NCBI GenBank assembly: GCA_900752975.1
Contig: CAADXH010000018.1
Coordinates: forward strand, 124,695-188,694
Reading direction: 5' to 3'
Source of the DNA: Bacilli bacterium
GTDB taxonomy: Bacteria > Bacillota_I > Bacilli_A > ML615J-28 > CAG-313
DNA length: 64,000 nucleotides
Below are positions 3,912-56,941 of this stretch, in pieces. The notes beneath the pieces were generated by a model. The model ran no database searches. It was not told the DNA's origin and saw only the letters and a list, made by a program, of their open reading frames with translations. Position numbers and translations under genes: made by a program. Each line of letters begins with the position of its first letter. Within the stretch, counting starts at the first letter, position 1.

Positions 3912-3975
3912 TTTAGTTTCCTCCATAAGATAAATATTTAAGACATCTCTGTCTTATTACCTAAATAGTATATAA

Positions 3976-4287
3976 TTAAAGATCAATTTCGGCTTCTTTC
4001 TTTTGTTTCTTGGGTTTACCTAATTCCGAATGAGGTGTATCACCATAATCTTCTAAATCCCGTAAATGCTGACGTTCTATTAAGTCTACTTCTTCTTTCG
4101 TTCGTCTCTTATTACAATATTTATATCGAAAATCACCTATTGAAAGTTCCGGTTCTAAAGATTCAGTAAAAATAAATATGCTTGTTCCCCAATCATCAAT
4201 GCAAAGTATTTCACAATCTAAATATGGCTCATAACCATTAGAAAGGTCTAAACTTAAACACAAACAAAAATTTTCAGCGTATCCCAT
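3976..4287 (-). CDS. hypothetical protein; possibly the 3' part of a frameshifted gene that starts at 4442
   Basis: No SD before the ATG at 4287. An SD-preceded short ORF (MHVNEKMKEIAELFEKRKKEGKK, start 4442) is open in the -1 frame across an A-rich tract (4367-4398) and would fuse to this ORF. Confidence 0.45.
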   Translation of the reverse strand: MGYAENFCLCLSLDLSNGYEPYLDCEILCIDDWGTSIFIFTESLEPELSIGDFRYKYCNKRRTKEEVDLIERQHLRDLEDYGDTPHSELGKPKKQKKEAEIDL

Positions 4288-5310: not shown

Positions 5311-5354
5311 ATATAACACTCCTTCCGTTATATTATAATGATGTTCAAGACAAA

Positions 5355-5416: not shown

Positions 5417-6433
5417 TCAGATATTAGATTCTTGTCTTTCTTGATAAGCAGGATAGATCTTCTTATCATCTGTGAGAATAGCATGCTTAAGTTGAAACTC
5501 ATTCTTAAGAATAATAGAAATCCTATGCTTAACGTCATCTGCTGAATAATGATCAGGTATAAGATACTTAAATGATTGTCTAAACGAATCCATTACAAGT
5601 GTTCCACAAATTTCATATATTTCTTCTTGTGAAACTCCTCTTCCAAAAGATAAAAGCATATTCCTAATTTTCTTAAAGACTATGCTATCCAAAATCTTTT
5701 CATAGTCATACGCGGAATACGTACAATTAACTGTTTCAACAGTTCCTGATGTTCTTGGTATGAGTTCATCATCTGTTGGAATACTGCGTACAGAATACTT
5801 TTGATTTAAAAGACAGGTAGTAAATCCTGGAATCATATAACCATTCATTACATCATATATAGACAAATCTCCGAAAATGATATAACGAATCCGATCAAAC
5901 TCTTTACGAGTAATACACTGGTATCCAAAAATATCTTCAAATTCTATCAAGAATAAATAACTTTCCTTATGGAATTTATCCAATCTATATTGATCGAGTA
6001 ATTTCTGAAGAAAGGTACTATTTGTATCAGAACTAAAAACACCATAATCGATTCTACACTTACTGTATTCCCTTCTGATATCGATGATATCATAATCTTT
6101 TACCAATTCTGGATTATAATCATTGAACGAAAATACAGAAAGCTCTTTAATAATATTTTCTTTGATTGTTTCATCTCCAAGTGAATACTCAGCCAGTTTA
6201 GGAAATGATAACCTCCTTATAGTGTTAGTTAATTCCTTATTCTTACCAATAGTGTTCAAAATAGTCTTTCCATTTTTATCAATGAAATTGAGATGATCAA
6301 TAATAGCTAAAGCTGCAGCATCATACATCTCCTTTAAAGACATATCTTCCTTAATACCATAACGTCTTATTATTGCCGTCATGATTCCATTAAAGATGGT
6401 TGTTGTTCTTGCGTTTCTCTTTGTTGTTTTCAT
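5417..6433 (-). CDS. hypothetical protein, paralog B1; C-terminal 31 aa copied from the DNA polymerase KKxY/thumb region
   Basis: Paralogous to 6499-7422 (MKT[TA]KRNART.TIFN..., YMIPG, ELIP.TSGTV.TVN, KNMLLSFGRG.SQEEIY.ICG). Its tail ILKNEFQLKHAILTDDKKIYPAYQERQESNI is close to identical to the polymerase residues encoded at 55378-55470. Confidence 0.65.
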   Translation of the reverse strand: MKTTKRNARTTTIFNGIMTAIIRRYGIKEDMSLKEMYDAAALAIIDHLNFIDKNGKTILNTIGKNKELTNTIRRLSFPKLAEYSLGDETIKENIIKELSVFSFNDYNPELVKDYDIIDIRREYSKCRIDYGVFSSDTNSTFLQKLLDQYRLDKFHKESYLFLIEFEDIFGYQCITRKEFDRIRYIIFGDLSIYDVMNGYMIPGFTTCLLNQKYSVRSIPTDDELIPRTSGTVETVNCTYSAYDYEKILDSIVFKKIRNMLLSFGRGVSQEEIYEICGTLVMDSFRQSFKYLIPDHYSADDVKHRISIILKNEFQLKHAILTDDKKIYPAYQERQESNI

Positions 6434-6498
6434 AATAATTCTCCAATCTGTGTTTTAACGTCTTTATCACCTGACATATTATTTATTTAACCTTTTCT

Positions 6499-7422
6499 TT
6501 ATATCTCATCTTTGAACAAGTCTCTACCCTTTAATACCGAATAATAATCGGACACAAGATGTTTTAGCGATGGATTGAGTATATACACAAATGATCCACA
6601 AATATCATATATTTCTTCTTGTGAAAGTCCCCTTCCAAAAGATAAAAGCATGTTCTTAATTTTCTTAAAGACTATGCCATTCAGAATCTTTACATAATTA
6701 ACTGTTGAAACAGTTCCTGATGTTTTTGGTATAAGTTCATCATCTATTACTTTAGAGATAACTCCCTTATCACCATATCTAGATGCGATTTTACCATCAT
6801 CATTTGTTGGAATACTGTGTACAAAATACTTTTGCTTTAAAAGGCAGATAACATGTCCTGGAATCATATAACCATTCATTACGTCATATATTACATCATC
6901 ACTAAAAGTGATATAACGGATTCGATCAATTTGCTTACGAGTAAGGAACTGATATCCAAAGATTGTTTCGAAAAGAATCAATGCTCTGTAATTCTTTTCC
7001 TGATGTGCTCTCCGAATATAATCCTTACACAAGTCTCGAATAAAGTAAGATTCAGATAAGTTATCAATTCTATCAATCAGATATGAAATGAATGTATCAT
7101 TATCAAATTGATTGATATCAAATTTGTGGATGTCAATAAAGAACTGTCTAGTTTCAGGATTTATAACTTTGATATAGTTATCAGAATCAACCAAAGATAC
7201 TCTTCTTCCCTTGTTAATCAAGTCCTTATTTGGTCCAAAGGTATTATATATAACCTTTCCGTCTGCATCAAGGAAATGGAATATAAAATCATCCTTTTCT
7301 TCCAAGATGTCGTACACCGAACGCAATTTTCTTTTTCTATAAATACCATACATAGAAGTTACTGCGTGCATAACATTGTTAAAGATGGTTACGGTTCTTG
7401 CGTTTCTCTTTGCTGTTTTCAT
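6499..7422 (-). CDS. hypothetical protein, paralog B2
   Basis: Same family as 5417-6433. The upstream ~45 nt, including a conserved 15-codon mini-ORF, is also duplicated. Confidence 0.65.
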   Translation of the reverse strand: MKTAKRNARTVTIFNNVMHAVTSMYGIYRKRKLRSVYDILEEKDDFIFHFLDADGKVIYNTFGPNKDLINKGRRVSLVDSDNYIKVINPETRQFFIDIHKFDINQFDNDTFISYLIDRIDNLSESYFIRDLCKDYIRRAHQEKNYRALILFETIFGYQFLTRKQIDRIRYITFSDDVIYDVMNGYMIPGHVICLLKQKYFVHSIPTNDDGKIASRYGDKGVISKVIDDELIPKTSGTVSTVNYVKILNGIVFKKIKNMLLSFGRGLSQEEIYDICGSFVYILNPSLKHLVSDYYSVLKGRDLFKDEI

Positions 7423-7946: not shown

Positions 7947-8014
7947 TTTAACCTCTCCTTTGTTTTGTGTTTCGAATAACATTTTCTTCTGCTATTCATA
8001 TAAATAGTATATAA

Positions 8015-8054
8015 TTTTTTAAAAGATTAATAGGGTAGAATTTAATCTACCCTA
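8015..8054 (-). terminator. rho-independent terminator
   Basis: TAGGGTAGA-loop-TCTACCCTA hairpin, with a T-run on the minus strand, downstream of 8060-8353. Confidence 0.6.
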
Positions 8055-10647: not shown

Positions 10648-10700
10648 TATAATTGACCTCCTTTAAATATTTTTATAATATTGTTTCTGATATAAAAAAT

Positions 10701-10766: not shown

Positions 10767-11120
10767 TTACTTATAGCATATATCAACCACTGCGTTAATA
10801 GCGGATTCTTTCGAATCAGCATATCCGATTCCGTTTTCAATTGTAACCCCTTCAAACTTCATGGTATCATCGAAGTCAAAGGAATTATTAATCGACGGAA
10901 CAGACATGATACAATAACCATGTCTACTGTTCTTGTAAATATAAAAGGGTATACCAAACTCCATACAGAAATAGAGGAGTTCGGGTCTATACCCCAAATT
11001 GCAAAATGCATAGAAACCTCCATTGGATTCCAAGGCATGGTTCTTTGCCGTATCAATCCGATTTCTTTCCCAGTTTCTGGTTGCATTAAATCTCCGCCGT
11101 ACATTCATTGTTGCCATCAT
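10767..11120 (-). CDS. hypothetical protein
   Basis: SD AAAGGAGG; 117 aa. Confidence 0.55.
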   Translation of the reverse strand: MMATMNVRRRFNATRNWERNRIDTAKNHALESNGGFYAFCNLGYRPELLYFCMEFGIPFYIYKNSRHGYCIMSVPSINNSFDFDDTMKFEGVTIENGIGYADSKESAINAVVDICYK

Positions 11121-11172
11121 TTTAAATGACCTCCTTTTTAAAAATCCTGATTATAATGTACTCATAATCACC

Positions 11173-11205
11173 TCTATAATATATGTATAAATTAGTTTTT
11201 ACCAA
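11173..11205 (+). promoter_or_regulatory. shortened copy of the recurring phage promoter-like motif
   Basis: TCTATAATATATGTATAAATTAGTTTTTACCAA versus the consensus ..TATAATTATATATAArTGAATATA..TAGTTTTACAAA. Lies ~50 nt upstream of the ATG at 11253. Confidence 0.4.
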
Positions 11206-11252
11206 TGTAAAAACTAAACTATAAACATATTCTTATTCATAGGAGGAAAATT

Positions 11253-12035
11253 ATGGGTAAACTTAAGTATACTTTCGATGATTATATTAATAATCCATCT
11301 GGTAAAGGCAGTGCTGTTTTAGCTTCTATCAATAAAGATCAGTTCGAAAAAGAACTTATGACATTAGAAGCGAACAATGCTAAGGCTACATATAAAATTT
11401 ACAAGCAAAACAAATCTGGAGGAAAGTTTACATATTATATTCATTTTCTCATTCCTTCTTCTACAAAAGGATTCTTTAATGATGTCGTTATAGAATTAAA
11501 TTCTAATCCTGACGACAATACAGTTACAAAGACTATCAAAGCTTATTATGTAAAATTCTTTTCAAATGATAGTAACTTTGTTTATACATATGCTTATTCA
11601 TTTAAATCTCACGGTGTTCTTATTACAGAACTAGAAAAGTTACTTCCTTTTAGATGTATCTCTCAAAAACCTGTGATGCGAAATCCAGATAATGCAATGG
11701 GATATAATAAAGGAATTATATATGCATATCTTATAATGGTTAGAGATGGACTGTTCAACAAAGAAACTCTCAATAGAAATTGTAAGTATGCGAATATAAC
11801 TGCTATTAGAAATACAATTCTTCCCTTCGATAAAAAGCTTCAGGAACGTAGAAAAATTGAAGAAGAATTGAAGAAAGCTGGCAAAGAGCAAAAACAAAGA
11901 TCTAGTAAGATTGTGAAGTCTAAAAATCTTCTAGGACCTGATAAAAAACAAGAACCAGCTAAAGTTTCTAAAACTGTTTCGAATGTAAAAACAACTTCTA
12001 GATCTTCAACTGCCAAAAAGGTTAAAAAGCGATAA
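11253..12035 (+). CDS. hypothetical protein with a Lys-rich basic C-terminal tail
   Basis: SD TAGGAGGAAAA. C-terminus KKAGKEQKQRSSKIVKSK...AKKVKKR. Confidence 0.6.
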   Translation: MGKLKYTFDDYINNPSGKGSAVLASINKDQFEKELMTLEANNAKATYKIYKQNKSGGKFTYYIHFLIPSSTKGFFNDVVIELNSNPDDNTVTKTIKAYYVKFFSNDSNFVYTYAYSFKSHGVLITELEKLLPFRCISQKPVMRNPDNAMGYNKGIIYAYLIMVRDGLFNKETLNRNCKYANITAIRNTILPFDKKLQERRKIEEELKKAGKEQKQRSSKIVKSKNLLGPDKKQEPAKVSKTVSNVKTTSRSSTAKKVKKR

Positions 12036-12100: not shown

Positions 12101-13711
12101 ATGGATATAGCAGAAATTTGTCACAGCACAAACTATTGGGTAGAAGTAGATAAATGGACACCACTTCTAGAAGATAGAATTTTTAACGAAACAAAGAATG
12201 CCATAATTCTTCCGGTATCAAAGTTTTATGGTTTAAAAGAAGATTCAATTCTTCTCGATAATTTTATATTGATACCAAAAAGATGCTATAATTCAGATGA
12301 AGTCAGAGGACACATTGTTAAGTATCTGAATTACTTTGAGAGATTTTATGACATAGAGCACGAACTACTATTTTACATCTATCGTATCAAAATCTTAATT
12401 GACATGGGTATTGATTACAAGGATGCAAATGGTAATAAAGTTCACGCTGAATATAGTCTAGAAAATTTCTTGAATGATATCAAGACATATATCTTATCTG
12501 ATAGTATTTACAAGAAAACTTGGAAGATGGTAGAAGATAACTATAGTCTTGAATTGAACTACAAGAACAAAGCAAATGAAGCTCTTCAGTATTGTGATAG
12601 ACATGGTAAGTATCTTATGGAAATTAGTATATTCCAGAATATATTGATTCCATTGTTGATGCACTTTGTTTATAAGAACAAACTGAGCACATCTACAGAT
12701 ACAGTGAACAAAATTATATTCACTGTGTATAATTGGTTGTTTGATGTCTATAAAGATTATAATGTGATGGCAAAGCGTGGATTACAACCTGCTGATATTT
12801 TTCAGAAGTTGTATGAAACTGCTATCACAACAATGAATGCACATTATAAGACAAACAAAATCTTATGGGAAATGTCTAGTATCCGAGGATTTTGTCCAAC
12901 AATCAATGCAAATGATGCAATTGATATTGTCATCATGCAGGTAATCCCGAAATATACCTTTAAAGGAAACGTCATTTCATATAACATTTCTTCTATTAGA
13001 AATAATATCAAGTATAATATTTCTGATATTGGATTTGAATATGATTTTGTTTCCTTATCTTCATCAAAAAGAGATGGTGAAGATAACACATCTCAATTTG
13101 ATAAGTTCGAAGCACATCTTCAAAAGACTGATGAAGGATTAGCACTTCAAAATGACTTTAGAGCAGAAGTTATCATGGATAAGATAACAAAACTCGAAGG
13201 TGGGGTATCTAAGAAAGAAATCGATTTCTATCGAAAAGCTCTGATAAAGAATGGACAATTCTTAGTTAATAAGTTTCAACAGAATCTCGTAAACAATATC
13301 TTTTATAAGTATTTTGGAGATACTGTTTCGATCAATAGTATTAACGCAGATGACTATATTACACTTATTGTAATTGGAAAGAGAATACTTCTTAGAAGTG
13401 GAATGAAACTATTACCGTATATTGTTTCGAGTGCAGTTGTAAAGATTTCTACGAGAACCGGTGTTTGTAAGAAAGAACTTATGAAAATCGAACAGTCAGA
13501 ATATTACTCTGCTTTGAAACGAAAGTATAATGGTAATGAGAAGATTATGAAACAGATTTTCTCACTGATTGCTACAACACTATCTAGCAGCTTTAAAATC
13601 ATCGATTATGATGAAGATAATGAAAAAGCTGGTAAGTATAATGGTAAAGATGTAGTAATGGAAAACGATATTATCATCGATGAGATGATAAGATTTATCA
13701 TTGCAATATAA
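12101..13711 (+). CDS. hypothetical protein
   Basis: SD TAGGAGGC; 536 aa. Confidence 0.6.
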   Translation: MDIAEICHSTNYWVEVDKWTPLLEDRIFNETKNAIILPVSKFYGLKEDSILLDNFILIPKRCYNSDEVRGHIVKYLNYFERFYDIEHELLFYIYRIKILIDMGIDYKDANGNKVHAEYSLENFLNDIKTYILSDSIYKKTWKMVEDNYSLELNYKNKANEALQYCDRHGKYLMEISIFQNILIPLLMHFVYKNKLSTSTDTVNKIIFTVYNWLFDVYKDYNVMAKRGLQPADIFQKLYETAITTMNAHYKTNKILWEMSSIRGFCPTINANDAIDIVIMQVIPKYTFKGNVISYNISSIRNNIKYNISDIGFEYDFVSLSSSKRDGEDNTSQFDKFEAHLQKTDEGLALQNDFRAEVIMDKITKLEGGVSKKEIDFYRKALIKNGQFLVNKFQQNLVNNIFYKYFGDTVSINSINADDYITLIVIGKRILLRSGMKLLPYIVSSAVVKISTRTGVCKKELMKIEQSEYYSALKRKYNGNEKIMKQIFSLIATTLSSSFKIIDYDEDNEKAGKYNGKDVVMENDIIIDEMIRFIIAI

Positions 13712-18720: not shown

Positions 18721-18729
18721 AAAATAACG

Positions 18730-18765
18730 CCGGTAGGTTATCAAACCTACCGGAATTATTTTCTT
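18730..18765 (+). terminator. rho-independent terminator
   Basis: CCGGTAGGTT-loop-AACCTACCGG hairpin followed by a T-rich run. Confidence 0.7.
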
Positions 18766-18917
18766 AAATCTAATTCTAGATTTTTTAATTTTTCATTAAT
18801 CTAGAATTCCGCCGATGAATCCGTCACCCATGAGTTTCACCTACTTTGTTTATCATTTCCCTTCCTCCTTTCTGACTGATAGAATTTTTTATTCTATCAC
18901 TTTTATAATATGTAATT

Positions 18918-20717
18918 TTAAAATTCTGGATTTACAAATTTAACTGAGTCATCAGGTTGTACAGTTAATTCATATAGACAAAGAATATTTTCTTTAGAAA
19001 TATCTCTTACTGCATAACCATTCATACCCAATACTTGAATTTTAGCATTTGCTTGCTTTTCACATTCTTGATTTGCTTCTATTGTATAGACTGGTTTTAC
19101 AATAGCAGTGTCCCCATCATAGTCCATCCCCATTGCACCTATTAATCCGTTACAAATAGAAAGAGTATCTTCAAACAGAGGAGATGTATTTGAATTTAAA
19201 TCTTTTGCTTCGATAACAGGATACCATTTGTAGAGTTTCATATTATCTTCGAATCCAGATTGAACAACCATAGGACAAGTTTTTACAGTAGATTTGATTC
19301 TAACTTTAGATGGATACTGATTTAAGAATGAGTCAATAGGGAAACGTGTAATTAATACCATCTTATCTTCAGTAACATCACATGCTGCCATATAAAACAA
19401 ATCACACCACGTAAGTCCTCTTTCTATTTTTAAATCAGCTGAGTATTCCTTTTTTGTTTTATTATAATCTTTAGCATTGTTTAATCTATATCCACCAAAA
19501 AACATACCAAATTTTAATGACTTTAAATCAGCTTTCTTTCCAGTAGAAGTTTTTACTTCGTTATTTTTAACTCGCCTTGCAAATTCTTCTTTATCTACAG
19601 GAAGTTCTATTGGAATAAAACGATTAGAATAACCATGAATAAAACGTTCAATCTGTTTCTCTAGTTCTACATCAGAGAATGCTATCTGATAATCGACCAA
19701 GGGAACATAGACAAATTCATTTTCATTAATCGCAATTGGATATTCCATTTTACCAGCAAATCTATTTTCGAAGAAACGTCTTAACCAGAATACAATAAAT
19801 GGTTTGAAACAACACAATGCTGCTGCTAACGGTAATGCAGCATGATTCATATCAATCATTAAATCATCTATTTCTTCTCCTGATACATCTGGTGCAGACA
19901 TTACCAAACGTGCGGAATAGTCTACTGTTTTATACAATGTACCACGTTTAATTAGACCCATTTTACCAGGAAGATTTGCTGGGGTTTCCTGTCCATTAAT
20001 TGTAGTACCGTTACCAAACCAGTCAAAGATTTGAAGTAAGATATTCTGTACTCTCGCTTTAGTAACTTCACTTAAAGTCAAGCCAAAACCAGCAGTCTCT
20101 TTCAATGATTTTGTAGCCATAATCAGACTACTATATAACTTATTAATTTCACCCACACCAATACCGTTATCTCTAGATTCAACGTCACGATAATATGGTG
20201 GAATTACAATGTACTTTGTAATCCATAATTGGTCTTTGCTCTTTTGAATAAAATCGATTCTTTTATTACGAGAAGATGAATCATTCTTCTTAAATTTTAT
20301 TTTACTAAAGTTCTTTCTTAACCAATCAATACCTGTATTACCATCATCAGACTTCACTAATTCTCCGTTACTATCAATGATAAAATACTCAGTACCATTT
20401 ACAATACTTTCAATTTTATTATTTAACTTACATAAAGTCTTATATACAATTGGATGGAAAAAAGAACCTCCTAAATCAATATAAGCAAAGATACCAGAAC
20501 GTTCTGCTTTTGTAATACCAAAGATTTCATTTGATAATAAACCATCTTCTGTTGGTGTTGGACCATTGAAAAATACTGGGTTAGTAACTTCTTTTAGCAT
20601 ATTCACTTTAACAAACTTTTCCATATCCAAAAGAGAAGTTTTTAAGTGTTGTGTACTTGCTTCTGTAAAAAAATCAGTATCGTTTTTAACGATATTAACT
20701 GCTTCATCTATAATCAT
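18918..20717 (-). CDS. multisubunit RNA polymerase beta-prime subunit, N-terminal fragment (contains the catalytic DYDGD loop)
   Basis: VLITRFPIDSFLNQYP....GAMGMDYDGDTAIVKPVY aligns with bacterial beta-prime NRAPTLHRLGIQAF...YNADFDGDQMAVHVPL. N-terminal GLLSNEIFG...IDLG.SFFHPIV resembles the clamp region but lacks the zinc finger. SD GGAAGGAG precedes MIIDEA. Confidence 0.65.
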   Translation of the reverse strand: MIIDEAVNIVKNDTDFFTEASTQHLKTSLLDMEKFVKVNMLKEVTNPVFFNGPTPTEDGLLSNEIFGITKAERSGIFAYIDLGGSFFHPIVYKTLCKLNNKIESIVNGTEYFIIDSNGELVKSDDGNTGIDWLRKNFSKIKFKKNDSSSRNKRIDFIQKSKDQLWITKYIVIPPYYRDVESRDNGIGVGEINKLYSSLIMATKSLKETAGFGLTLSEVTKARVQNILLQIFDWFGNGTTINGQETPANLPGKMGLIKRGTLYKTVDYSARLVMSAPDVSGEEIDDLMIDMNHAALPLAAALCCFKPFIVFWLRRFFENRFAGKMEYPIAINENEFVYVPLVDYQIAFSDVELEKQIERFIHGYSNRFIPIELPVDKEEFARRVKNNEVKTSTGKKADLKSLKFGMFFGGYRLNNAKDYNKTKKEYSADLKIERGLTWCDLFYMAACDVTEDKMVLITRFPIDSFLNQYPSKVRIKSTVKTCPMVVQSGFEDNMKLYKWYPVIEAKDLNSNTSPLFEDTLSICNGLIGAMGMDYDGDTAIVKPVYTIEANQECEKQANAKIQVLGMNGYAVRDISKENILCLYELTVQPDDSVKFVNPEF

Positions 20718-20822
20718 ATATGTTTCTCCTTCCATATTAATTTATAAGATTGTTAAAGAGACAAAAAAAGAAAGCCTAACTCACGTCAGTCTTTCTTTAA
20801 TCCTTACAGATGATGCTTTTGA

Positions 20823-21065
20823 TTAGGGTTCATCATAATAATCTTCATCATCGTCATAGTAATCTTCTTCATAGAAGTTACCAGTTGCTTTCTCAACCTC
20901 CCTTTCGATATATTCTTTATAATCAGAAACAGCCTTTTCAGCTGCTTCTTTGGAGTTGTATTCTCCAATAAGAATAAAATAATCTTCTGGAAGAATACTA
21001 GAGATGCAAATTTCATCGTCGAAATCTTCAGTTGTGTAAGCATAAAAAGTTGTATTTGCGTTCAT
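20823..21065 (-). CDS. small acidic hypothetical protein
   Basis: Immediately downstream of the conserved leader copy A; ends ..EEDYYDDDEDYYDEP. Confidence 0.5.
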   Translation of the reverse strand: MNANTTFYAYTTEDFDDEICISSILPEDYFILIGEYNSKEAAEKAVSDYKEYIEREVEKATGNFYEEDYYDDDEDYYDEP

Positions 21066-21232
21066 GGTAATAGCCTTTTCCCTTCACCCTGGGAACATAG
21101 AATTTCTACGTCTGATGCTTGAGGTTTCAGGTATGCATCAACCTGTTTTCGATATAGAGTAATATTACTATCTCTATTCACTATAATTATATATAAATGA
21201 ATATACATAGTTTTACAAATATATACGCCTTA
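21066..21232. promoter_or_regulatory. bidirectional promoter + conserved 5' leader cassette, copy A (inverted repeat partner of 34505-34672)
   Basis: ~170 bp that is near-identical (with one 10-bp indel) to the reverse complement of 34505-34672. The leader half (21066-21160) abuts the ATG of 20823-21065. The promoter-motif half (21176-21219, ATTCACTATAATTATATATAAATGAATATACATAGTTTTACAAA) faces 21288. Confidence 0.65.
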
Positions 21233-21287
21233 TATAACCCACAACATAACTATAAAATTTTAATATAAAAGATTGGAGTTTTGATAT

Positions 21288-21482
21288 ATGGCTTTAGTAT
21301 GTGAAGAATGTATGAAAGGTGCACCTTACGCTTTCTGTTGCAAAAGAGAATGTGGAGAACATGAATTTTGTAGAGGTTGTACTTATCGAAAATCATTAGA
21401 AGAAACTCAGTGTTTCGATGATTCAATTGGATCAGAAGATTGGTTAAAAAAGTCTTCATCACTATTATCTGATTCATACTAA
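21288..21482 (+). CDS. small Cys-rich hypothetical protein (9 Cys in 64 aa)
   Basis: MALVCEECMKGAPYAFCCKRECGEHEFCRGCTYRK...; SD TGGAG. Confidence 0.5.
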   Translation: MALVCEECMKGAPYAFCCKRECGEHEFCRGCTYRKSLEETQCFDDSIGSEDWLKKSSSLLSDSY

Positions 21483-26838: not shown

Positions 26839-26924
26839 AACATTAGGAGGGATTTTTATAATCCCTCCTTCCATTTTTACTTCTTTAACATTTCAATAAT
26901 TATAAATGTAAGGAGATGGTATTA

Positions 26925-32114: not shown

Positions 32115-32148
32115 TCCCAGATGGAGAAATCCATCTGGGATATTTTTA
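32115..32148. terminator. bidirectional rho-independent terminator between convergent genes
   Basis: CCCAGATGGA-GAAA-TCCATCTGGG hairpin followed by TATTTTTATT. Confidence 0.7.
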
Positions 32149-34455
32149 TTCTTCACCACTATCTTCATTTGACTCAGCTGCAACTCGTTGCTTTGCTTTA
32201 TGTGCAATATCTTCAAGTTCAGGGATATTAAGATAAGAACCGAGATTAAATTTATTAATCTCACGAATTACTTCATTCTTTACCGGTTCTTCTTCATCAG
32301 GGTCAAGAATTAACTGTGCGACACTCTGAGAATATTCATTTACGTTTGTCATCATTTGGTTTGTATTTGTAATGTTCAAGAACATTGGAGGTGGTAAAAT
32401 TACAGAAGTTTGAATATTATCATCAAATTCATTATTATAAATTTTATTGAAAATACGAGTAAGATTCATCTGAAACTTACTCTGTCTATTATATACTTTT
32501 CTCAAGAACTTACTAGATGACATTGTTAACTGAGAAGAATAGTCTACAGTATTTCTCATCTGAATCATTTCCATCGGAACATCTGTACTATTTACAGACA
32601 TTTCTTCTAGCATTGTCATAAATTCAGTTTGATATTCTACCGATTGTCCTTGCATAACTTCAAAATCAATTGGAGAATTACCACTAGGACCTCTAGGAAT
32701 AATATAGTCATTAAACATACCTGTGATATTCAAGATATGGTTAATATTTTCAATTTGTCTGATACCAAAGTTACCTTTTTTAATTTGATTAATGGTATTA
32801 AGAAGTGTTTTAGATATATTTGTATCAACAGTCTGATTTACATAGTATACTCTTTTATCCTGTGCTCTAGTCATATTCCAAATTGCATGAGTAATATAAT
32901 TTGCACAATATAATGTAGCTGGGAACATTGCTTTATCTAAATCGGAAATACCTCTATGGGTATCTTCATTCATTTTGAAATAGACATGTTCCATATCATC
33001 TGGTGGGATAAATGTAACTCGAACCTTATTCATATGGGAACTATTATTATCATAATTAAACTTAAGAACTGTATAAATTTCGTTTCTTAAGTCTTGATTT
33101 GCATTGATAAATTTTGCATCGATGAAATTAGAAATTTGGTTTGCAATATAACGAATAATATTGTTTTGTTTTGTAGACTGGTCAAGCATACTATTTGTAG
33201 ACAAAATAGAATTAGAACCTTTTAAAGACATTGTAGGGTCTTGCATCTTATCATAATCACCTACCGGATTATATGGACCATCTACTTCAATATAATAATA
33301 TCCAAAACAATAATTTTCAATATAAATTGGAATAACATGTTTTCTTTCCAAAATCTTTACAATTGTACCTGGGACATTAATATATCTATCGTCTTTTGAT
33401 TTCTTCTTTGCTTTATTCTTATCTACTAATCCTTCTTGACCTCTGTCATCAAATCCTTCAAAAGACAAATCGTCTTTAATTGTCTTCTGGAATCTTCCCT
33501 TTACGACATCTCGTATATTATTAGCTGATTCTTCGATTGTTTCCTCAGAAAAATCTGCACCTTCGTAATTTAACGACATCTCGTTTAATGAACGAGATGC
33601 TTTTTCAAATCGCATAATATTTTCTACAACAGAATTAATTGCACCTGTATAACATTCAAGTTGTATATTGTTTAATCCAGCTTGTTCAAACATTTCTGGT
33701 GTAATTTCTTTTGGTAATTTATCCATTTCAATATTACCAGATTCTGTAATAATTGTGTGCTCTTTAATATCCAATTCAGCACGAGTATTATTCTTTTGCT
33801 TTAATAATCTTGCTACGGCTTTCTTATATGGAACAATATATACAAATGCTTCTCCATACTTAGAAGCCTGGTCATAGATTTCATCAGTTAAATCCTGGAA
33901 TTTATATGTTTCCTTAATAAACTTAATATGTTCATTATAAGTTTCAGAATCATTTGTAATACTTGAAGAAGTCACATTGATAAAGTCTTTAGAAAAATGG
34001 TCAGCAGATAATACATTATCTTTTCTAGTATCCAACGCTTCTTGTAATCTTGGCATATATTTAAGAATCGTATCAATCTTATTATCATAATCAAATACAG
34101 TAGTTGTATCATTAATAAAGCCCATTAATCCAGCTTCAATAACTTGACTGTCGTTAATAAGAGATTCAAGACTTTGTCCACCTTCTTTATTTCCAGGTTT
34201 AATAGAACTTCCTTGTTGTTGCATTCTAGAATAGAGTGTACTCATTGTACCTCTACCAGTATTATCCATATTAACCGATACAATATTATCTATAGAAGAG
34301 TCTAGTTTATTCTTAATCGATTCAAGGTCTTGTTTATTAGATGCTTGTGAATAGTATGTTTTACTATATAGATTATCTAGACTATTTTGAATTGTATTAG
34401 AAAGTCTATTGATAATACTAGTAGATGATCTTTTCTTTTCATCCTTTTTAGCCAT
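32146..34455 (-). CDS. large hypothetical protein (769 aa); structural candidate
   Basis: SD AAAAGGAGGT; driven by the promoter-motif half of cassette copy B. Confidence 0.55.
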   Translation of the reverse strand: MAKKDEKKRSSTSIINRLSNTIQNSLDNLYSKTYYSQASNKQDLESIKNKLDSSIDNIVSVNMDNTGRGTMSTLYSRMQQQGSSIKPGNKEGGQSLESLINDSQVIEAGLMGFINDTTTVFDYDNKIDTILKYMPRLQEALDTRKDNVLSADHFSKDFINVTSSSITNDSETYNEHIKFIKETYKFQDLTDEIYDQASKYGEAFVYIVPYKKAVARLLKQKNNTRAELDIKEHTIITESGNIEMDKLPKEITPEMFEQAGLNNIQLECYTGAINSVVENIMRFEKASRSLNEMSLNYEGADFSEETIEESANNIRDVVKGRFQKTIKDDLSFEGFDDRGQEGLVDKNKAKKKSKDDRYINVPGTIVKILERKHVIPIYIENYCFGYYYIEVDGPYNPVGDYDKMQDPTMSLKGSNSILSTNSMLDQSTKQNNIIRYIANQISNFIDAKFINANQDLRNEIYTVLKFNYDNNSSHMNKVRVTFIPPDDMEHVYFKMNEDTHRGISDLDKAMFPATLYCANYITHAIWNMTRAQDKRVYYVNQTVDTNISKTLLNTINQIKKGNFGIRQIENINHILNITGMFNDYIIPRGPSGNSPIDFEVMQGQSVEYQTEFMTMLEEMSVNSTDVPMEMIQMRNTVDYSSQLTMSSSKFLRKVYNRQSKFQMNLTRIFNKIYNNEFDDNIQTSVILPPPMFLNITNTNQMMTNVNEYSQSVAQLILDPDEEEPVKNEVIREINKFNLGSYLNIPELEDIAHKAKQRVAAESNEDSGEE

Positions 34456-34504
34456 ATAGTATACCTCCTTTTAATATTTACTAAATTGTTGAAATGAGTA
34501 AATT

Positions 34505-34672
34505 GTAATGACTTTGTAAAACTGCGTATATTCACTTATATATAATTATAGTGAATAGAGATAGTAATATAAGCTATATTCTATATCGAAAACAGGTTGA
34601 TGCATACCTGAAACCTCAAGCATCAGACGTAGAAACTCTACGTTCCCAGGGTGAAGGGAAAAGGCTATTATC
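34505..34672. promoter_or_regulatory. bidirectional promoter + conserved 5' leader cassette, copy B
   Basis: Reverse complement matches 21066-21232. The motif half (34514-34557) faces 32146-34455. The leader half (34576-34672) abuts the ATG of 34673. Confidence 0.65.
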
Positions 34673-35122
34673 ATGACCAACACAACTACTGCAACAAACA
34701 ATGCAATCGCTTCCGCTACGACAAACGGCTTTACCTTTGAAGCTGTGCTGAATGAAGTATCAGTTACTGATACAATGCACGCTACAATGGTAGAAACAAT
34801 GTTCAACATTGTTGTCACCAACACAGTAAGAAAGGGGGTACATGTTACCGAAAACTATCTCAAAAGAATGAACGAAACGTTCGAAAAGTTTTTAAAAGCA
34901 ACCAAAATCAAATATGTCAAGTCGGATATCGATCTTGACAGAACATTTGATGAAAAAACATTCATCTTTGAAGCAGACAAAGATGAATGGGAAGAAAATG
35001 CAATCAGCTTGATTGCATTATTAAAGAAAGAAAGAATCACATTTGACGAAAATACAGAAGAAGGATTTATCTGCTATGATGAATCTCAGAATTCTGAAAA
35101 AGATTTAATTATCGTCGAATAA
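34673..35122 (+). CDS. hypothetical protein (Thr/Ala-rich N-terminus)
   Basis: Directly follows the conserved leader; 149 aa. Confidence 0.5.
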   Translation: MTNTTTATNNAIASATTNGFTFEAVLNEVSVTDTMHATMVETMFNIVVTNTVRKGVHVTENYLKRMNETFEKFLKATKIKYVKSDIDLDRTFDEKTFIFEADKDEWEENAISLIALLKKERITFDENTEEGFICYDESQNSEKDLIIVE

Positions 35123-35143
35123 GAATTTCAACTGAAAAAGATA

Positions 35144-35178
35144 AGAACGCACTATTGCCAAGTGCGTTCTTTTTTTGT
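35144..35178. terminator. rho-independent terminator
   Basis: AGAACGCACT-ATTGCCA-AGTGCGTTCT hairpin followed by TTTTTTT. Confidence 0.7.
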
Positions 35179-35804: not shown

Positions 35805-37841
35805 TTATGCTCCAATCTCCTTAGGCTTACTATACAAATAACCATCCTTAAGACTATTATAGATTTCAGTAAAGTTATTAAAATCAGACTTATCGAAATC
35901 AAATTTAGGTTGTTCAAATACAGACTTATCTCCACAAGCCATTGCATTAACAATCTTCAAATCTCGTTTATTTTTACAATTAATAAACAATCCACGATTA
36001 TCAACTTCTGGTTTTCTGGATACATCGTCAAAATCATGATACGTCAATATACCATTCGGTCGTCTTACTGTTGTGAAATACTCAATGATGTCATCATACA
36101 TTTCTTCATAACCAGCAAAATGGAACCAACGACTAAAGAATTCAATCCAGTTATGTGACTGTAAATCATCCATGAATTGAGCTTCTCTTCTCCATTTGAT
36201 TTCATCTCTATGAAATCTATTTTCAAATTCATATACCTTTTCTGGGATATTAACATGCCCAATCAATGTCGTCTGCGACATGTTAAATTCAGATGTGATT
36301 GATGGATACAAAGACTTATAATCAAAGTCATCCAGATTATTAAAGATAGATACTGGAATACCATTAATTCTCATCTTAGAATAATCACTATTATATTTCG
36401 GGTCTGCAACAAATGCACCTGGGAATTTTTCTTTCGGTGTATTCTGATTTGTATTATTACCCATAATCATTCCATATCTATAATATGACTTTGCTGCTCG
36501 ATTCTTAAGATATACAGTTTGACGATATATTTTTGACCAACGAGTATTGTCTAACAATACATTATTATATGCAGAGTCAATATCATTTACTTTAAACTCT
36601 ATACAATACTGTACAATTGTATCCATAATATTATAGAATACGAATGTTTCATAATCTTTATATGGTAATTCTGCAAGTTTCGTTGTAATATGACTATAAT
36701 CAAGTTTCTTTACACCACAAGTAATCTGTCCGATATAATCCAACTTATAATTCTCAATCGCTTTTTGTCCCTTTCGTCTAGACGCAAAATGAATCATCTG
36801 ATCAAGATACACCGAATATGAACTAATCTTTGCGAAGTCATTTCTTTCTTCATAATTAAACTTATTCTTCTCATCAATAAAGTAATTTACTTCTTTATAT
36901 CTGAAATCTGGATGACACATAATATCCTTTGGATTATATCCAAGATTGATAATTCGTTGGATGATATACGGAATATCGAATGCCATGTTCCATGCTAGCA
37001 CAGTATCTGGTTTGATATTGTTAATATAATTGAATAGGTGTTTTAATAAAACAATCTCATCTTCTTCATCATAGAAATGAAATTGAACAGTCATCTTATC
37101 AATCTTATACTTACAAGCTTGTTTCTCTCCACCAACCGCATCGATTAAGAATTGTCGTAATCGCATATTCAATGATGGTTTATTACATTCTTTTTCAAAT
37201 TTCTCAATCAATGGATTCTCTTTATTTCGTAATAAGAATGAATGAACAACCAAGGACTGATCATCAATAAATGATACTGCATTGATTGGACATTCACCAA
37301 GTTCTACGAATTCACCCTTACAATCAATTGTATCAGCTTCAATATCAAGAAATGATTTCGATGGTTTGGTATAACTATTCTCATATGAGTTCGCAAATTG
37401 AAACCTGATGTTATCTTCAATATCCATATCAGACATCAGGATCGCTGGGTTATAATTACATAACACTTTATTTGCAGCTCGATTCCGATTACGAATGTTT
37501 TCAAAGAACTCATTTGTTTTTCCTAATCGGTCTGCAATGTCTTTTTGAAGAGATATAAACGGCGTGATGATTCGTTTACAATCTTCTTTCATTGCATATT
37601 CCAAAGTATATCTTGGAACTTCTTTTCCATCAAGTAGCATATAATATTCATACTCAGGATTAATTATTGTTTCCAAAAACTTTTCACCTGACCGAATATC
37701 TTTGATAATCAAATCAATTGCCGGTGATAACCATTTCCCATTCGGATCTTTCTTTGGGTAATGGTAAATCGTGTTTAATAAAGATAACGGATATCCTTTT
37801 GGATATTGACCTATCAAAAAATCATCTTCGTAATATTTCAT
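35805..37841 (-). CDS. family B DNA polymerase, N-terminal part (3'-5' exonuclease domain + polymerase motif A)
   Basis: Exo I FLDIEAD; Exo II AWNMAFDIPY; motif A DFDYKSLYPSI. The ORF stops about 170 aa after motif A, and motifs B and C are absent. SD TAGGAGGC. Confidence 0.75.
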   Translation of the reverse strand: MKYYEDDFLIGQYPKGYPLSLLNTIYHYPKKDPNGKWLSPAIDLIIKDIRSGEKFLETIINPEYEYYMLLDGKEVPRYTLEYAMKEDCKRIITPFISLQKDIADRLGKTNEFFENIRNRNRAANKVLCNYNPAILMSDMDIEDNIRFQFANSYENSYTKPSKSFLDIEADTIDCKGEFVELGECPINAVSFIDDQSLVVHSFLLRNKENPLIEKFEKECNKPSLNMRLRQFLIDAVGGEKQACKYKIDKMTVQFHFYDEEDEIVLLKHLFNYINNIKPDTVLAWNMAFDIPYIIQRIINLGYNPKDIMCHPDFRYKEVNYFIDEKNKFNYEERNDFAKISSYSVYLDQMIHFASRRKGQKAIENYKLDYIGQITCGVKKLDYSHITTKLAELPYKDYETFVFYNIMDTIVQYCIEFKVNDIDSAYNNVLLDNTRWSKIYRQTVYLKNRAAKSYYRYGMIMGNNTNQNTPKEKFPGAFVADPKYNSDYSKMRINGIPVSIFNNLDDFDYKSLYPSITSEFNMSQTTLIGHVNIPEKVYEFENRFHRDEIKWRREAQFMDDLQSHNWIEFFSRWFHFAGYEEMYDDIIEYFTTVRRPNGILTYHDFDDVSRKPEVDNRGLFINCKNKRDLKIVNAMACGDKSVFEQPKFDFDKSDFNNFTEIYNSLKDGYLYSKPKEIGA

Positions 37842-38107
37842 ATTTAGCCTCCTAATCATCAACGAACGTAATACGTTCTTTCAATCTATTTATATATTTG
37901 TTTTCTCTGATGTAAAAGAAAAAATTATCTCCACAGAATGAACTGTGGAGATATCCAAATAAAATTAACAAGAGGAAAACAAACAAACTTCACAAGAGGA
38001 AAATCATGTCAACCAGATTTAAGGTCTTCCAACCTTATTTAAATGTTAACAAATATTAACGATTTATAAGAAAAACATCTCTATAAAATCACAAAGGAGG
38101 AAATAAC

Positions 38108-39055
38108 ATGGCTATCTTAAACGATGATGTTCTTAAACGAGGCTCTTCTAATAATACTACTTTATCTACTCAATCTACTACTTCTGATGAAACTCCATCA
38201 GAATCTACTCCACCGAAAAGAAAAAGAGGAAGACCTAGAAAAAGTGAACAACAATCAACCGAAGTTATTGAAATAACACCAAGTCATCATAAACAACAAT
38301 CTGACATTCCTATGTGTCAATCATCCGAACCATATGAAAACACTTATGATGAAACAAATAATATGCTTAAATACTCTATTATGCAATTGGATGTATTAGC
38401 AAATGATATTAAGAATGAACTTGATACAATTAGAAAATCTAAGACACTTAAGGGAAAATATCAGTTCATTTCTGATTTATGTTCTACTGCAAGTAACTTA
38501 GTAAGTTCTAAAATTTCTGCAATAAAGGAGATTAATGCTGTTAAGACAAATTGTCATAAGCTCGAATTACAGCGAGTTAAGGACATTAAGAACTCTGCAG
38601 CAAACCAACAAGATGATGATAAATTTATTACTGATATGTACAATGCTTATATTAATACTCCTGTAAATGCTGGCTCTAATCCAATGATGCAATATACATC
38701 TTCTAACATTGGTGGAAATATGAATGCATATATGAATGGAGTAAATACTTCTCAAGTTAATGAGGAACAAAATTTTCAAAACTATATGAGCAATCTATCT
38801 CCTGAACAAAACAGAATGATTTTGGGTGATAATCCTAATATTGAAACTGTTGTAGTGTATGATCCAAATACAGGAGAAAAGGCTTTTGAAGTAATTGATT
38901 CTAGTACAGGTCTATCTGTACCAAACTATCCTAGACCAAGTAATTCATTATTAGACGATACAAGTGTTGATATATCTACTGGTATTGCATCTAATACAAA
39001 TATTGGTCAGAGTTGGAAAGTTGTTGTTCTCGGAGATATGATAAATAAGTTCTAA
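38108..39055 (+). CDS. hypothetical protein with an AT-hook-like PKRKRGRPRK segment
   Basis: SD AAAGGAGGAAA; S/T-rich N-terminus then KRKRGRPRKSEQQ. Confidence 0.55.
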   Translation: MAILNDDVLKRGSSNNTTLSTQSTTSDETPSESTPPKRKRGRPRKSEQQSTEVIEITPSHHKQQSDIPMCQSSEPYENTYDETNNMLKYSIMQLDVLANDIKNELDTIRKSKTLKGKYQFISDLCSTASNLVSSKISAIKEINAVKTNCHKLELQRVKDIKNSAANQQDDDKFITDMYNAYINTPVNAGSNPMMQYTSSNIGGNMNAYMNGVNTSQVNEEQNFQNYMSNLSPEQNRMILGDNPNIETVVVYDPNTGEKAFEVIDSSTGLSVPNYPRPSNSLLDDTSVDISTGIASNTNIGQSWKVVVLGDMINKF

Positions 39056-39113
39056 TTATATACTATTATAATGATTACAATGTAATCAAATAAAAATAAA
39101 GGAGTTTTGAAAA

Positions 39114-39446
39114 ATGAACGGAATTGACAAAATTGGACAATGGTTCTTTGAAGATGAGAATCTTTGCAGAAAAGAACCAGTAATGTTATCAATGGGTGAA
39201 GAGTGTTATGTACTTGACCTTGACATCTTTGATGAGGTTAATGAAACTTACACATTTATTCCTTGTATTGTTGTAAGGATAGACCAATCTAGTATACCTG
39301 GTAGATGGTATTATGTATTACAGGCTAAGGACAGTGTAAATGACGAACAACTTAACTCGAACTATGATGCAGGTATAAGATTTTATAAATATTTGGAGAA
39401 TACATCTCCTTATCTTTATAAGATTAATCATGTAGAAGATAGATAA
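39114..39446 (+). CDS. hypothetical protein
   Basis: SD AAAGGAG; 110 aa. Confidence 0.5.
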   Translation: MNGIDKIGQWFFEDENLCRKEPVMLSMGEECYVLDLDIFDEVNETYTFIPCIVVRIDQSSIPGRWYYVLQAKDSVNDEQLNSNYDAGIRFYKYLENTSPYLYKINHVEDR

Positions 39447-43457: not shown

Positions 43458-43471
43458 TGGAGGTGATAAGA

Positions 43472-44491
43472 ATGGATTATCTAGAAGGATTGAGAAGTAT
43501 CTTAAACGAAATTAATGTCGGTTCTGATCAACCATCTGCTGATAATACAACCGACGATTCCGAAGATGATGGAGATCAGAATTTCATGGACGATGGTGGT
43601 GGGGACGATACTACTACAGATGCTCCAGAAGAAACCACAGATGATTCCGAAGATGATGGTGACCAAAACTTCATGGACGACGGTGGTGGAGAAGATACTG
43701 GAGAAGATACAACACCTCCAGCTGACAACACTGCAGATGAAGATGATGGAGATCAGAATTTTATGGATGACGGTGGTGGAGACGATACTACTACAAATGA
43801 TACAGCAGATGCTTCCGAAGAAACCACAGATGATTCCGGAGATGATGATGCTGGCCAAAACTTCATGGACGACGGTAGTGGAGGAGACACTGGAGAAGGT
43901 GGAGGAGACGATGCTTCAGGTGGTGATGGAGGAGAAGAAACCACTGATGATTCTGAAGGAGAAAATAGTGAAGAATCCGAAGAAGGCTCTGATGAAAATG
44001 GATATGATATTAATAAAATTGAAGAGGAACTTTTCTCTAGTCTAACCCCTGAGCAAATTGCAATCAAGAATCATGAATTAAAGAATCAATTTATCGAATT
44101 ATATTCTATTATTGGAAGTACATTGGTCCGAATCAATGACATTTCTAAAACAAATGAAAATATCAATGTACTAAAATTTATTACAGAAAAATTATTGGAA
44201 TTAAGAGAAATGATTGACTTTAATATTACAACAGCATATCAAACTAGAACGTACATTGAGAATAACATCATCTATCAACAGTGTATTGCTACGTTAAATG
44301 CAATTGCAGAAATCATCGATAATATTCCAAAATTAGATGGAAGAGACGATTCAGAAGAAGAATCTGAAGAAGATAAGAATGGTATCCCAGTAGATAATGA
44401 AGATGAGGAAGAAACTCATACCTTAAATATATCTGACACAACATCTGGTAGTACTTATCAGGAAGAATCTGCGTTCAATTCCTTATTTTAA
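43472..44491 (+). CDS. acidic tandem-repeat protein (4 x ~25-aa (T/A)DDSEDDGDQNFMDDGGGDDTT units)
   Basis: SD GGAGGTGA precedes MDYLEG. DNA tandem repeat about 43540-43900. Confidence 0.6.
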   Translation: MDYLEGLRSILNEINVGSDQPSADNTTDDSEDDGDQNFMDDGGGDDTTTDAPEETTDDSEDDGDQNFMDDGGGEDTGEDTTPPADNTADEDDGDQNFMDDGGGDDTTTNDTADASEETTDDSGDDDAGQNFMDDGSGGDTGEGGGDDASGGDGGEETTDDSEGENSEESEEGSDENGYDINKIEEELFSSLTPEQIAIKNHELKNQFIELYSIIGSTLVRINDISKTNENINVLKFITEKLLELREMIDFNITTAYQTRTYIENNIIYQQCIATLNAIAEIIDNIPKLDGRDDSEEESEEDKNGIPVDNEDEEETHTLNISDTTSGSTYQEESAFNSLF

Positions 44492-56102: not shown

Positions 56103-56150
56103 ACAAAAAAGAAGAATGGATGTAGAGTCCATTCTTCTTATTCTGTCTTT
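56103..56150. terminator. bidirectional rho-independent terminator
   Basis: AAGAAGAATGGA-loop-TCCATTCTTCTT hairpin flanked by an A-run and a T-run. Confidence 0.7.
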
Positions 56151-56671
56151 TAGCAAGCTTTGCAGTCAAGACCAAACATTCCGATTAAATCTAATGCCCA
56201 GCTAACATTCAGCTGACGTTCTGCATAAGGTTCAATTCCGATTGTTTCACAATTATGATTATTACAGAATTCTATTAAAGCTTCAGACGCATCGTCACGT
56301 TCTACGATTTCCATCTCAAATAACTTTTCAAGAATTTCATGTAAATAAACCCAATCGCTAATATACTGCATTACCTGAGATGCATCTTCAGCAGACATGC
56401 CACCGAACATGCCGATCAAATCTTCAACCAGGCTAATATTCAGCTGACGTTCTGCGTAAGGTTCAATTCCGATTGTTTCAGAATCGTGTTCATTCATCCA
56501 AGATACGAATGCACCATTCATGTCTTCCAGATTAGCTGTATCCATTCCGAAGCCAAACAGCTTTTCGGAAATTTCACACAGATAAATGTAGTCATTCAAG
56601 TAAGAGATAACTTCCTGTGCGTTGTTAGCGGTTGCGATTGCAATATTGTTCATCATTTTAGCGTTCATCAT
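56150..56671 (-). CDS. hypothetical protein made of two ~80-aa internal repeats
   Basis: The segment ..ETIGIEPYAERQLN.S...DLIGMFG occurs twice. SD GGAGGC precedes MMNAKMMN. The ORF-track N-terminal extension is leader sequence. Confidence 0.55.
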   Translation of the reverse strand: MMNAKMMNNIAIATANNAQEVISYLNDYIYLCEISEKLFGFGMDTANLEDMNGAFVSWMNEHDSETIGIEPYAERQLNISLVEDLIGMFGGMSAEDASQVMQYISDWVYLHEILEKLFEMEIVERDDASEALIEFCNNHNCETIGIEPYAERQLNVSWALDLIGMFGLDCKAC

Positions 56672-56833
56672 AATAAGCCTCCAAAGTTTCCGGAACATAG
56701 TGAACTATCAATATAGGTTTGTTCCAATAACCATATAATGATATTGTACATTGTTGTACGGCTCAGTTTTAAGTCATCCAAGCGTCCAGACTAAATAGAC
56801 CTTTCTAAGGATAATACTATAATACTATCTTCT

Positions 56834-56877
56834 ATTCATTATAATTATATATAAGTGAATATAGGTAGTTTTACAAA
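56834..56877 (+). promoter_or_regulatory. third copy of the recurring promoter-like motif
   Basis: ATTCATTATAATTATATATAAGTGAATATAGGTAGTTTTACAAA, about 65 nt upstream of the ATG at 56942. A diverged leader-like sequence (GGAACATAG...) lies on the other side, upstream of 56150-56671. Confidence 0.55.
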
Positions 56878-56941
56878 GTCCGATATATTCTACTATCTTT
56901 AACATATCTATAATTGTGTAAATGAAAGGAGGATATTATAT

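Follow-up and report, generated by a model that had tools for sequence, protein, structure and literature searches.

Three near-identical copies of an AT-rich repeat lie between genes of an uncultivated jumbo phage whose multisubunit RNA polymerases are split, each beside a virion gene, and the question they raise is on which strand such an element acts and which genes it serves. It was addressed in the window (the whole stretch of DNA analysed, 64,000 nt) and in related contigs, using phage AR9 as the model system.

The phage and its model system

The window has a G+C content of 31% and an intergenic share of 6.9%. Its ribosome-binding sites are strong (GGAGG), which makes a Firmicute the probable host. 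The nearest characterised relatives of the phage are AR9/PBS1-type phages; by protein, the phage comes closest to the annotated Listeria LPJP1, Staphylococcus S6-like and Bacillus AR9/PBS1-like jumbo phages, at ~30% amino acid identity. Megablast of 16 kb of the window against phage records gave no match and no near-identical record.

The phage was originally said to encode fragments of a multisubunit RNA polymerase, and this is correct. Beta/beta'-like genes were found (Table 1), homologous to the split polymerases of AR9, and the 738-aa protein resembles chain 7S00_D of the AR9 non-virion RNAP (nvRNAP; 6e-23). The 605-aa beta'-like protein had no match to the AR9 nvRNAP structure (7S00), though AR9-group phages have an orthologue of it that is 30% identical, a combination that makes it probably a virion-RNAP subunit. 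Other genes encode two separate DNA-polymerase-like proteins, as in AR9 (gp132, gp152), a primase, the major head protein and further virion proteins. The 769-aa gene below copy 2 of the repeat is a portal homologue, and the giant ORF below copy 3 has short similarity to the 'tape measure' proteins of AR9 and phiR1-37. Pfam and PHROG gave no function for the giant ORF, a Cys-rich 64-aa ORF or the small leftward proteins.

Some coding regions of the window contain repeats of their own. A 111-nt inverted repeat, 83% complementary (5420-5530 versus 55359-55469), covers the 3' end of a 338-aa gene (5417-6433, -) and part of the inside of the DNA-polymerase-like gene 54003-56102 (+), and thus represents a ~37-aa coding segment common to the two. 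Tandem paralogues of 338 and 307 aa at 5417-7422 (-) have stretches that are 78-91% identical and identical upstream regions (families D2, D4, D6 and D11). Directly upstream of the major head gene (44628-46658), a highly acidic protein (43457-44491, +) with four ~90-nt repeats (DDGDQNFMDDGGG...) could serve as a scaffold or as an internal head protein.

The early (virion-RNAP) promoter of AR9 is AAATATATATTAT-(6N)-G+1 (Lavysh et al. 2017, PMC5312081). In AR9-type phages, early transcription is carried out by an injected virion RNAP; in AR9 the early genes encode mostly hypothetical proteins, and the virion genes are late (PMC5312081). Late promoters, used by the non-virion RNAP with gp226, read AACA-(6N)-TA/G with AACA at -11..-8, and are recognised on the dU-containing template strand (PMC5312081, PMC7598289). 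Divergent early/late regions with a virion gene on the late side were verified in AR9 by primer extension (PMC5312081). Early promoters of the phiKZ group have an AT-rich element of ~10 nt centred near -10, with the TSS ~6 nt downstream (PMC7598289).

Copies of the repeat and the elements on its two strands

The 30-nt core ATTCAYTATAATTATATATAARTGAATATA was found exactly at 21176 (+), 34556 (-) and 56834 (+) (n=3 in the window) and in 0 of 100 shuffles, so the three strong copies first described are real. On the strand on which the motif was originally read (the first-read strand), near-identical copies run from 21176-21219 (+), 34513-34556 (-) and 56834-56877 (+), referred to here as copies 1, 2 and 3. 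Copy 2 is present but had been placed at 34514-34557 (-), and it has CAG where the proposed consensus has TAG. The unit common to all three is 47-58 nt, longer than the 44 nt of the original prediction, and copies 1 and 2 are alike over ~160 nt (21062-21219 versus 34513-34676, 95-96%). Each genome holds at least 8 copies. From the end of the motif to the next ATG on the first-read strand the distances are 68, 57 and 64 nt (copies 1, 2 and 3), roughly the 50-65 nt given earlier. A shortened copy had been reported at 11173-11205, and this site was rejected as a fourth member: it was not found even with 3 mismatches, and what it has in common with the repeat is limited to TATAAT..TATAA and a differently spaced TTTTAC-like block. 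On the opposite strand its sequence resembles promoters of the same general class (11169..11188, Table 1), with a hairpin at +1 and facing the gene 10767-11120 (-); the plus-strand gene beside it, starting at 11253, has a AACATATTCTTA of its own at 11224.

Read on the opposite strand, the motif has the form TTTGTAAAA-N12-A(C/T)TTATATATAAT-N6-G, or more fully TTTGTAAAAC-NNN-RTATATTC-A(C/T)TTATATATAAT-TATAGT-G-AATAGAG. The blocks kept across diverged lineages are CACTATWATTATATAYAA, a spacer of 13-14 nt with fixed length and variable sequence, and TTTTACAAA. Compared with the AR9 early 13-mer, ACTTATATATAAT and ATTTATATATAAT are identical at 10/13 positions and have the same N6-G, in DNA that is very AT-rich. 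Three other exact sites, AATTATATACTAT-N6-G/A, match the AR9 consensus at 11/13, and a single mismatch separates them from the annotated AR9 promoter AATTATATATTAT. The motif thus shares with AR9 early promoters an AT-rich 13-mer at -19..-7 (10-11/13), followed by six bases and a G, while differing at consensus positions 2-3 and 10-11. The G six bases past the 13-mer is present in all extended copies and in 2 of the 3 simple sites. Exact matches to a degenerate 13-mer are intergenic in 6/6 cases, each facing a gene 15-139 nt away. Looser members of the class were found at 11169 (-), 12055 (+), 18898 (-), 48618 (-) and 53295 (-), the last before the nvRNAP-like gene, which brings the candidate sites of the early class to ~11-12 per 64 kb, the density of AR9 (41 per 251 kb). 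Matches to the AR9 consensus with <=2 mismatches did not exceed shuffles in the window (9 versus 5.7), and for these only the placement is informative, not the count.

A tiny unit at 18721-18917 (-), between convergent genes, has an early-like AATTACATATTAT-N6-G, a +1 hairpin (GATAGAAT/ATTCTATC), an ORF of 10 codons with a Shine-Dalgarno sequence, and a terminator acting in both directions, and could code for a micropeptide or a small RNA.

Annotated AR9 early promoters (n=17) were taken from KU878088, positions 1-100000, and aligned. They contain an upstream block, (C)GTATTAAAA, at -38..-29, with G at -37 in 6/17 and information peaks at -33 and -30. This block goes beyond the published 13-mer consensus as quoted in PMC5312081. 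The motif carries the same GTA..AAAA-type block with G at exactly -37, and the part of it outside the 13-mer can thereby be explained as an upstream promoter element oriented like the 13-mer. Judging by copies of the core in relatives (L034_2262, L038, L101), the block is auxiliary, as in AR9, because these copies are without it and carry the same leaders.

Table 1. Positions of promoter elements, predicted leaders and genes in the window
Feature	Position (strand)	Details
Copy 1 promoter	21173..21219 (-)	Block TTTGTAAAA, complement of 21211-21219; G at -37 is 21216
Copy 1 13-mer ATTTATATATAAT	complement of 21186-21198 (-19..-7)	Predicted +1 G, complement of C21179
Copy 1 type A leader	21066..21179 (-)	Predicted 114 nt; 5'-terminal hairpin and three more, the last overlapping the Shine-Dalgarno sequence
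80-aa ORFan	20823..21065 (-)	Predicted target of copy 1
Late promoter AACATAACTATA (AR9-type)	21243..21254 (+)	Predicted to serve 21288-21482 and the tail-fibre-like block
Copy 2 promoter	34513..34559 (+)	TTTGTAAAA 34513-34521; 13-mer ACTTATATATAAT 34534-34546; predicted +1 G 34553
Copy 2 type A leader	34553..34672 (+)	95-96% identical to copy 1 leader
149-aa ORFan	34673..35122 (+)	Predicted target of copy 2; then bidirectional terminator 35143-35171
Late promoter AACAATTTAGTA (AR9-type)	34479..34490 (-)	Predicted to serve portal homologue 32146-34455 (-)
Copy 3 promoter	56831..56877 (-)	Upstream block, complement of 56869-56877
Copy 3 13-mer ACTTATATATAAT	complement of 56844-56856	Predicted +1 G, complement of C56837
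Copy 3 type B leader	56672..56837 (-)	166 nt; nested 5'-terminal hairpin
173-aa ORFan	56150..56671 (-)	Predicted target of copy 3; internal duplication; terminator 56109-56139
Late promoter AACATATCTATA (AR9-type)	56901..56912 (+)	Predicted to serve giant ORF 56942->64000
Site at 11173, other strand	11169..11188 (-)	ATACATATATTAT-AGAGGT-G; 11/13 to AR9 consensus
AATTATATACTAT-N6-G	39054..39073 (+)	No extended block; hairpin at +1; before 39114-39446
Identical AATTATATACTAT 13-mers	3965-3977 (-), 8004-8016 (-)	
Split beta/beta'-like RNAP subunits	18918-20735 (-), 51011-53227 (-), 12101-13711 (+)	
DNA-polymerase-like genes	35805-37862 (-), 54003-56102 (+)	Two separate genes

Gene orientation was compared over ~14 distinct contexts, obtained by pattern and orthology searches of IMG/VR on related contigs of ~215-247 kb. 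A gene starts on the opposite strand beside the motif in 14/14 contexts, 16-166 nt past the predicted +1; the products are ORFans of 50-173 aa with no PHROG function. On the first-read side, five contexts (L025, L026, L033, L034, L035) are gene-less and have a terminator hairpin, with a convergent gene where the sequence extends. In one further context (L032) the Shine-Dalgarno sequence of the leftward gene begins at +4, 3 nt past the conserved CAC, and the promoter of that gene must therefore lie inside the motif.

The virion genes across the sites have AACA-N6-TA 24-34 nt before their ATG, at 21288 (tail-fibre block), 34455 (-) (portal) and 56942 (giant ORF). Among the 256 tetramers X in X-N6-T[AG], AACA showed the strongest enrichment within 57 nt upstream of gene starts, and AACA-N6-T[AG] was observed 12 times before gene starts of the window versus 2.9 expected (p = 6e-5). 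The AR9 late consensus is thus present and positionally enriched before window genes, including the three virion genes adjoining the motif, and with these promoters of their own, the claim that the motif drives the tape-measure-like gene and the virion block is probably wrong. The element CAACAATYTAKTAATA is invariant in 9 orthologous portal upstream regions (81-100% aa identity) with diverged surroundings, 5/9 of which are without the motif and have the terminator of a co-directional gene in its place. Before the giant ORF, the late box is kept in orthologues at 68-72% aa identity. Unlike an AR9 late promoter, the 44-nt motif itself contains no match to AACA-N6-T(A/G) on either strand; matches lie 4-30 nt beyond, and the late element is the motif's neighbour. 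A fixed spacing between the two was tested and not found: by context, the distance from motif to AACA box is 4, 22, 23, 23 or 30 nt, so the motif does not belong to the late promoter as a constant upstream component.

Further AACA-N6-TA sites occur in the window, for example at 5334-5345 (-), 10674-10685 (-), 26887-26898 (+), 37891-37902 (-) and 38074-38085 (+). By its AR9-type late consensus, the window lineage may also have uracil DNA.

A comparable arrangement is present in the AR9 record. In the P120/P121 region, AAGTATATATTAT-ATATGA-G faces g120 and AACATTCTATTA faces the terminase gene, ~30 nt off on the other strand; the AR9 portal gene also has AACATTTAATTA. As in AR9, where early sites often diverge from late virion genes, the motif sites stand before small hypothetical genes.

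Predicted transcripts and their leaders

Minimum-energy folding of 21 different predicted leaders placed the first paired base at +1 in 13 and at <=+4 in 18, with a mean z of -2.7 versus shuffles. Sequences of the same length (45 nt) on the first-read side were unstructured except where there is a terminator. The 5' stems are unrelated in sequence, e.g. GAAGAATAG/CTATTCTTC, GATTAC/GTAATC and ATGGGTATAGAGAG/CTCTCTATACCCAT. With a crude detector of stems at +1 to +4 the background was too high (15/17 intergenic versus 12/21 genic). In Firmicutes, stem-loops at the extreme 5' end are known to stabilise mRNA. Window transcripts are predicted to start with a stem-loop, whereas AR9 early transcripts show no 5' hairpins.

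Two leader types were distinguished. Type A (114-126 nt) was found at copies 1 and 2 and at six loci in relatives (L002, L003, L005, L008, L038, L069), always preceded by the core; its consensus fold has four hairpins, the last of which pairs TCCC with GGGA of the Shine-Dalgarno region. Type B (~120-170 nt) was found at copy 3 and at eight others (L001, L004, L006, L007, L023, L029, L034, L035), and its consensus fold has a nested 5' hairpin. Both types precede unrelated small ORFans, and such long leaders common to unrelated genes in the window lineage set it apart from AR9. In both types G.U pairs, including G-C to G-U changes, are valid on the opposite strand alone. Covariation in type A is weak because the sequences are too similar. 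Rfam gave no gathering-score hit in the window and none at E<=1 in two leader regions, and a tRNA scan of the window was empty.

The type B leader at copy 3 contains an internal late-type AACAAACCTATA (56723..56712). Genes with a type B leader may therefore carry an early and a late promoter in tandem, like the 'continuously expressed' genes of AR9. The type A leader, for its part, is possibly a cis-regulatory RNA. More speculatively, and as a minority expectation, the promoter, the +1 hairpin and the 114-166-nt leader could together form a reusable 'early-gene cassette head'. The leader would then act as a cis-regulatory RNA, through stability given by the 5' hairpin and translational control by the SD-sequestering hairpin, possibly by a phage factor, and the shared sequence would be a recombination handle by which unrelated ORFans are swapped at fixed genomic sites.

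Weighing of the explanations

The late promoters at the virion genes, the gene starts on the opposite side and the match to AR9 early promoters together make an early-type promoter for small ORFans the most likely function of the motif. We consider it probable that the motif is a complete AR9-type early (virion-RNAP) promoter on the opposite strand, with the virion genes on separate AR9-type late promoters. The promoter would span about -41 to +7, and its elements would be TTTGTAAAA with G at -37, the -10-like A(C/T)TTATATATAAT at -19..-7, the 6-nt spacer TATAGT and the +1 G, giving the starts listed in Table 1. The transcript would open straight into the 5'-terminal stem-loop and continue into the long conserved leader, and each site would express one small ORFan (80, 149 and 173 aa). 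The virion genes across the site would be transcribed separately from AACA-N6-TA late promoters, so that each site would be a divergent early/late intergenic region like AR9 P120/P121. Sequence architecture, gene orientation, conservation and predicted RNA structure were observed here; start site, polymerase (virion RNAP) and timing (early) are those that homology to AR9 would predict, an analogy spanning RNAP subunits only ~30% identical. The general architecture also resembles that of phiKZ-group early promoters, likewise detectable bioinformatically as an over-represented intergenic motif; unlike in that group, the motif sequence is lineage-specific, and the phiKZ late promoter (TATG) was not seen in the window.

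The original prediction of a phage-RNAP promoter is very probably right as to kind; its direction, targets and class (middle or late) are probably wrong. The reverse complement matches the early architecture of AR9. A middle or late promoter firing into the tail-fibre block, the portal gene and the giant tape-measure-like gene would suit the position of the window copies, each 57-68 nt upstream of such a gene, and the core on that strand, AATTATATATAAR, is one mismatch from the degenerate 13-mer. We nevertheless regard it as improbable: the virion genes have their own conserved AACA-N6-TA, at a variable 4-30 nt from the motif, five contexts have only a terminator and no gene on that side, and orthologous portal genes keep the late promoter without the motif. 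On that strand, moreover, the +1 position is a T with no 5' hairpin, and the upstream block would fall downstream of the start. Host sigma-A RNA polymerase acting in the same direction as the early-type promoter, from TATAAT at -12..-7 with TTGTAA upstream, is slightly harder still to credit. A perfect TATAAT does lie exactly 6 nt before the predicted G, and the host is probably a Firmicute; the TTGTAA-TATAAT spacer, however, is 21 nt (16-18 bp required), sister sites have TACTAT or TATTAT with no TG extension, and AR9-type phages use the injected virion RNAP for early genes. The earlier statement that the motif does not resemble a sigma-70 -35/-10 pair agrees with these results, the best -35-like hexamer being 21 bp from TATAAT and a sigma-70 scan giving no consistent hit at the three copies.

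The conservation of the motif, >90% over ~57 nt, goes far beyond that of AR9 promoters and is not fully explained. Within-genome conservation exceeding the need of AR9 promoters would suit an operator for a dimeric phage DNA-binding protein that, in addition to a promoter or instead of it, shuts off the early and/or stimulates the late promoter. Part of the conserved stretch is an inverted repeat specific to the window lineage, TATTCAC-N13-GTGAATA, with perfect arms of 6-7 bp around AT-rich DNA; it occupies -24..+5 (-23..+4 when taken as ATTCAC-N15-GTGAAT) between the divergent early and late promoters, and in the 149437 lineage a different one, CTCTAT..ATAGAG, flanks the core. Protein p4 of phi29 acts between the A2c/A2b and A3 promoters, where early transcription is shut off and late transcription stimulated, and its sites are inverted repeats, their arms 15 bp apart, located where early and late promoters diverge. 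The motif is similar in having 6-bp arms 15 bp apart between divergent early/late promoters; unlike the p4 sites, its arms are not conserved across lineages, and no p4-like protein was found, so the likeness is a resemblance only. The right arm is lost in three loci (L010, L012, L023) and absent in three others (L026, L032, L034), all of which keep the core; in L010, L012, L026, L032 and L034 the spacing and upstream block are kept as well. No co-variation is seen between the two variable positions of the arms, one arm coincides with the conserved +1 region and is present in copies without the other, and no candidate regulator was found. An operator is accordingly a less favoured, rather unlikely reading, and the palindrome is possibly a lineage-specific add-on to the promoter. 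The idea that the palindrome folds into a hairpin as RNA was rejected, as the variable arm positions in different copies give C.A on one strand and A.C on the other. Least probable of all, and to our minds very much so, is a non-transcriptional DNA element (a replication origin, packaging site, recombination site or mobile-cassette boundary). The AT-rich sequence with inverted repeats, and adjoining genes that differ between otherwise syntenic relatives, would be expected of such an element; at least 8 copies per genome, strict orientation to the gene start, promoter-like spacing and a strand-specific leader structure argue against it.

The motif is a new member of a known promoter class, and its reading as an AR9-type early promoter provides a transcription map, open to testing, for a lineage of uncultivated AR9-like jumbo phages. 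The two promoter classes of AR9 appear conserved despite only ~30% polymerase identity, which suggests that the odd recognition rules of multisubunit phage RNAPs are old, including the template-strand-deoxyuridine rule of AR9 late promoters. A 'promoter upstream of virion genes' can belong to a gene on the other strand, which matters for the annotation of jumbo phages, and the 5'-terminal hairpins and shared leaders are new details that could be explored for the control of early genes.
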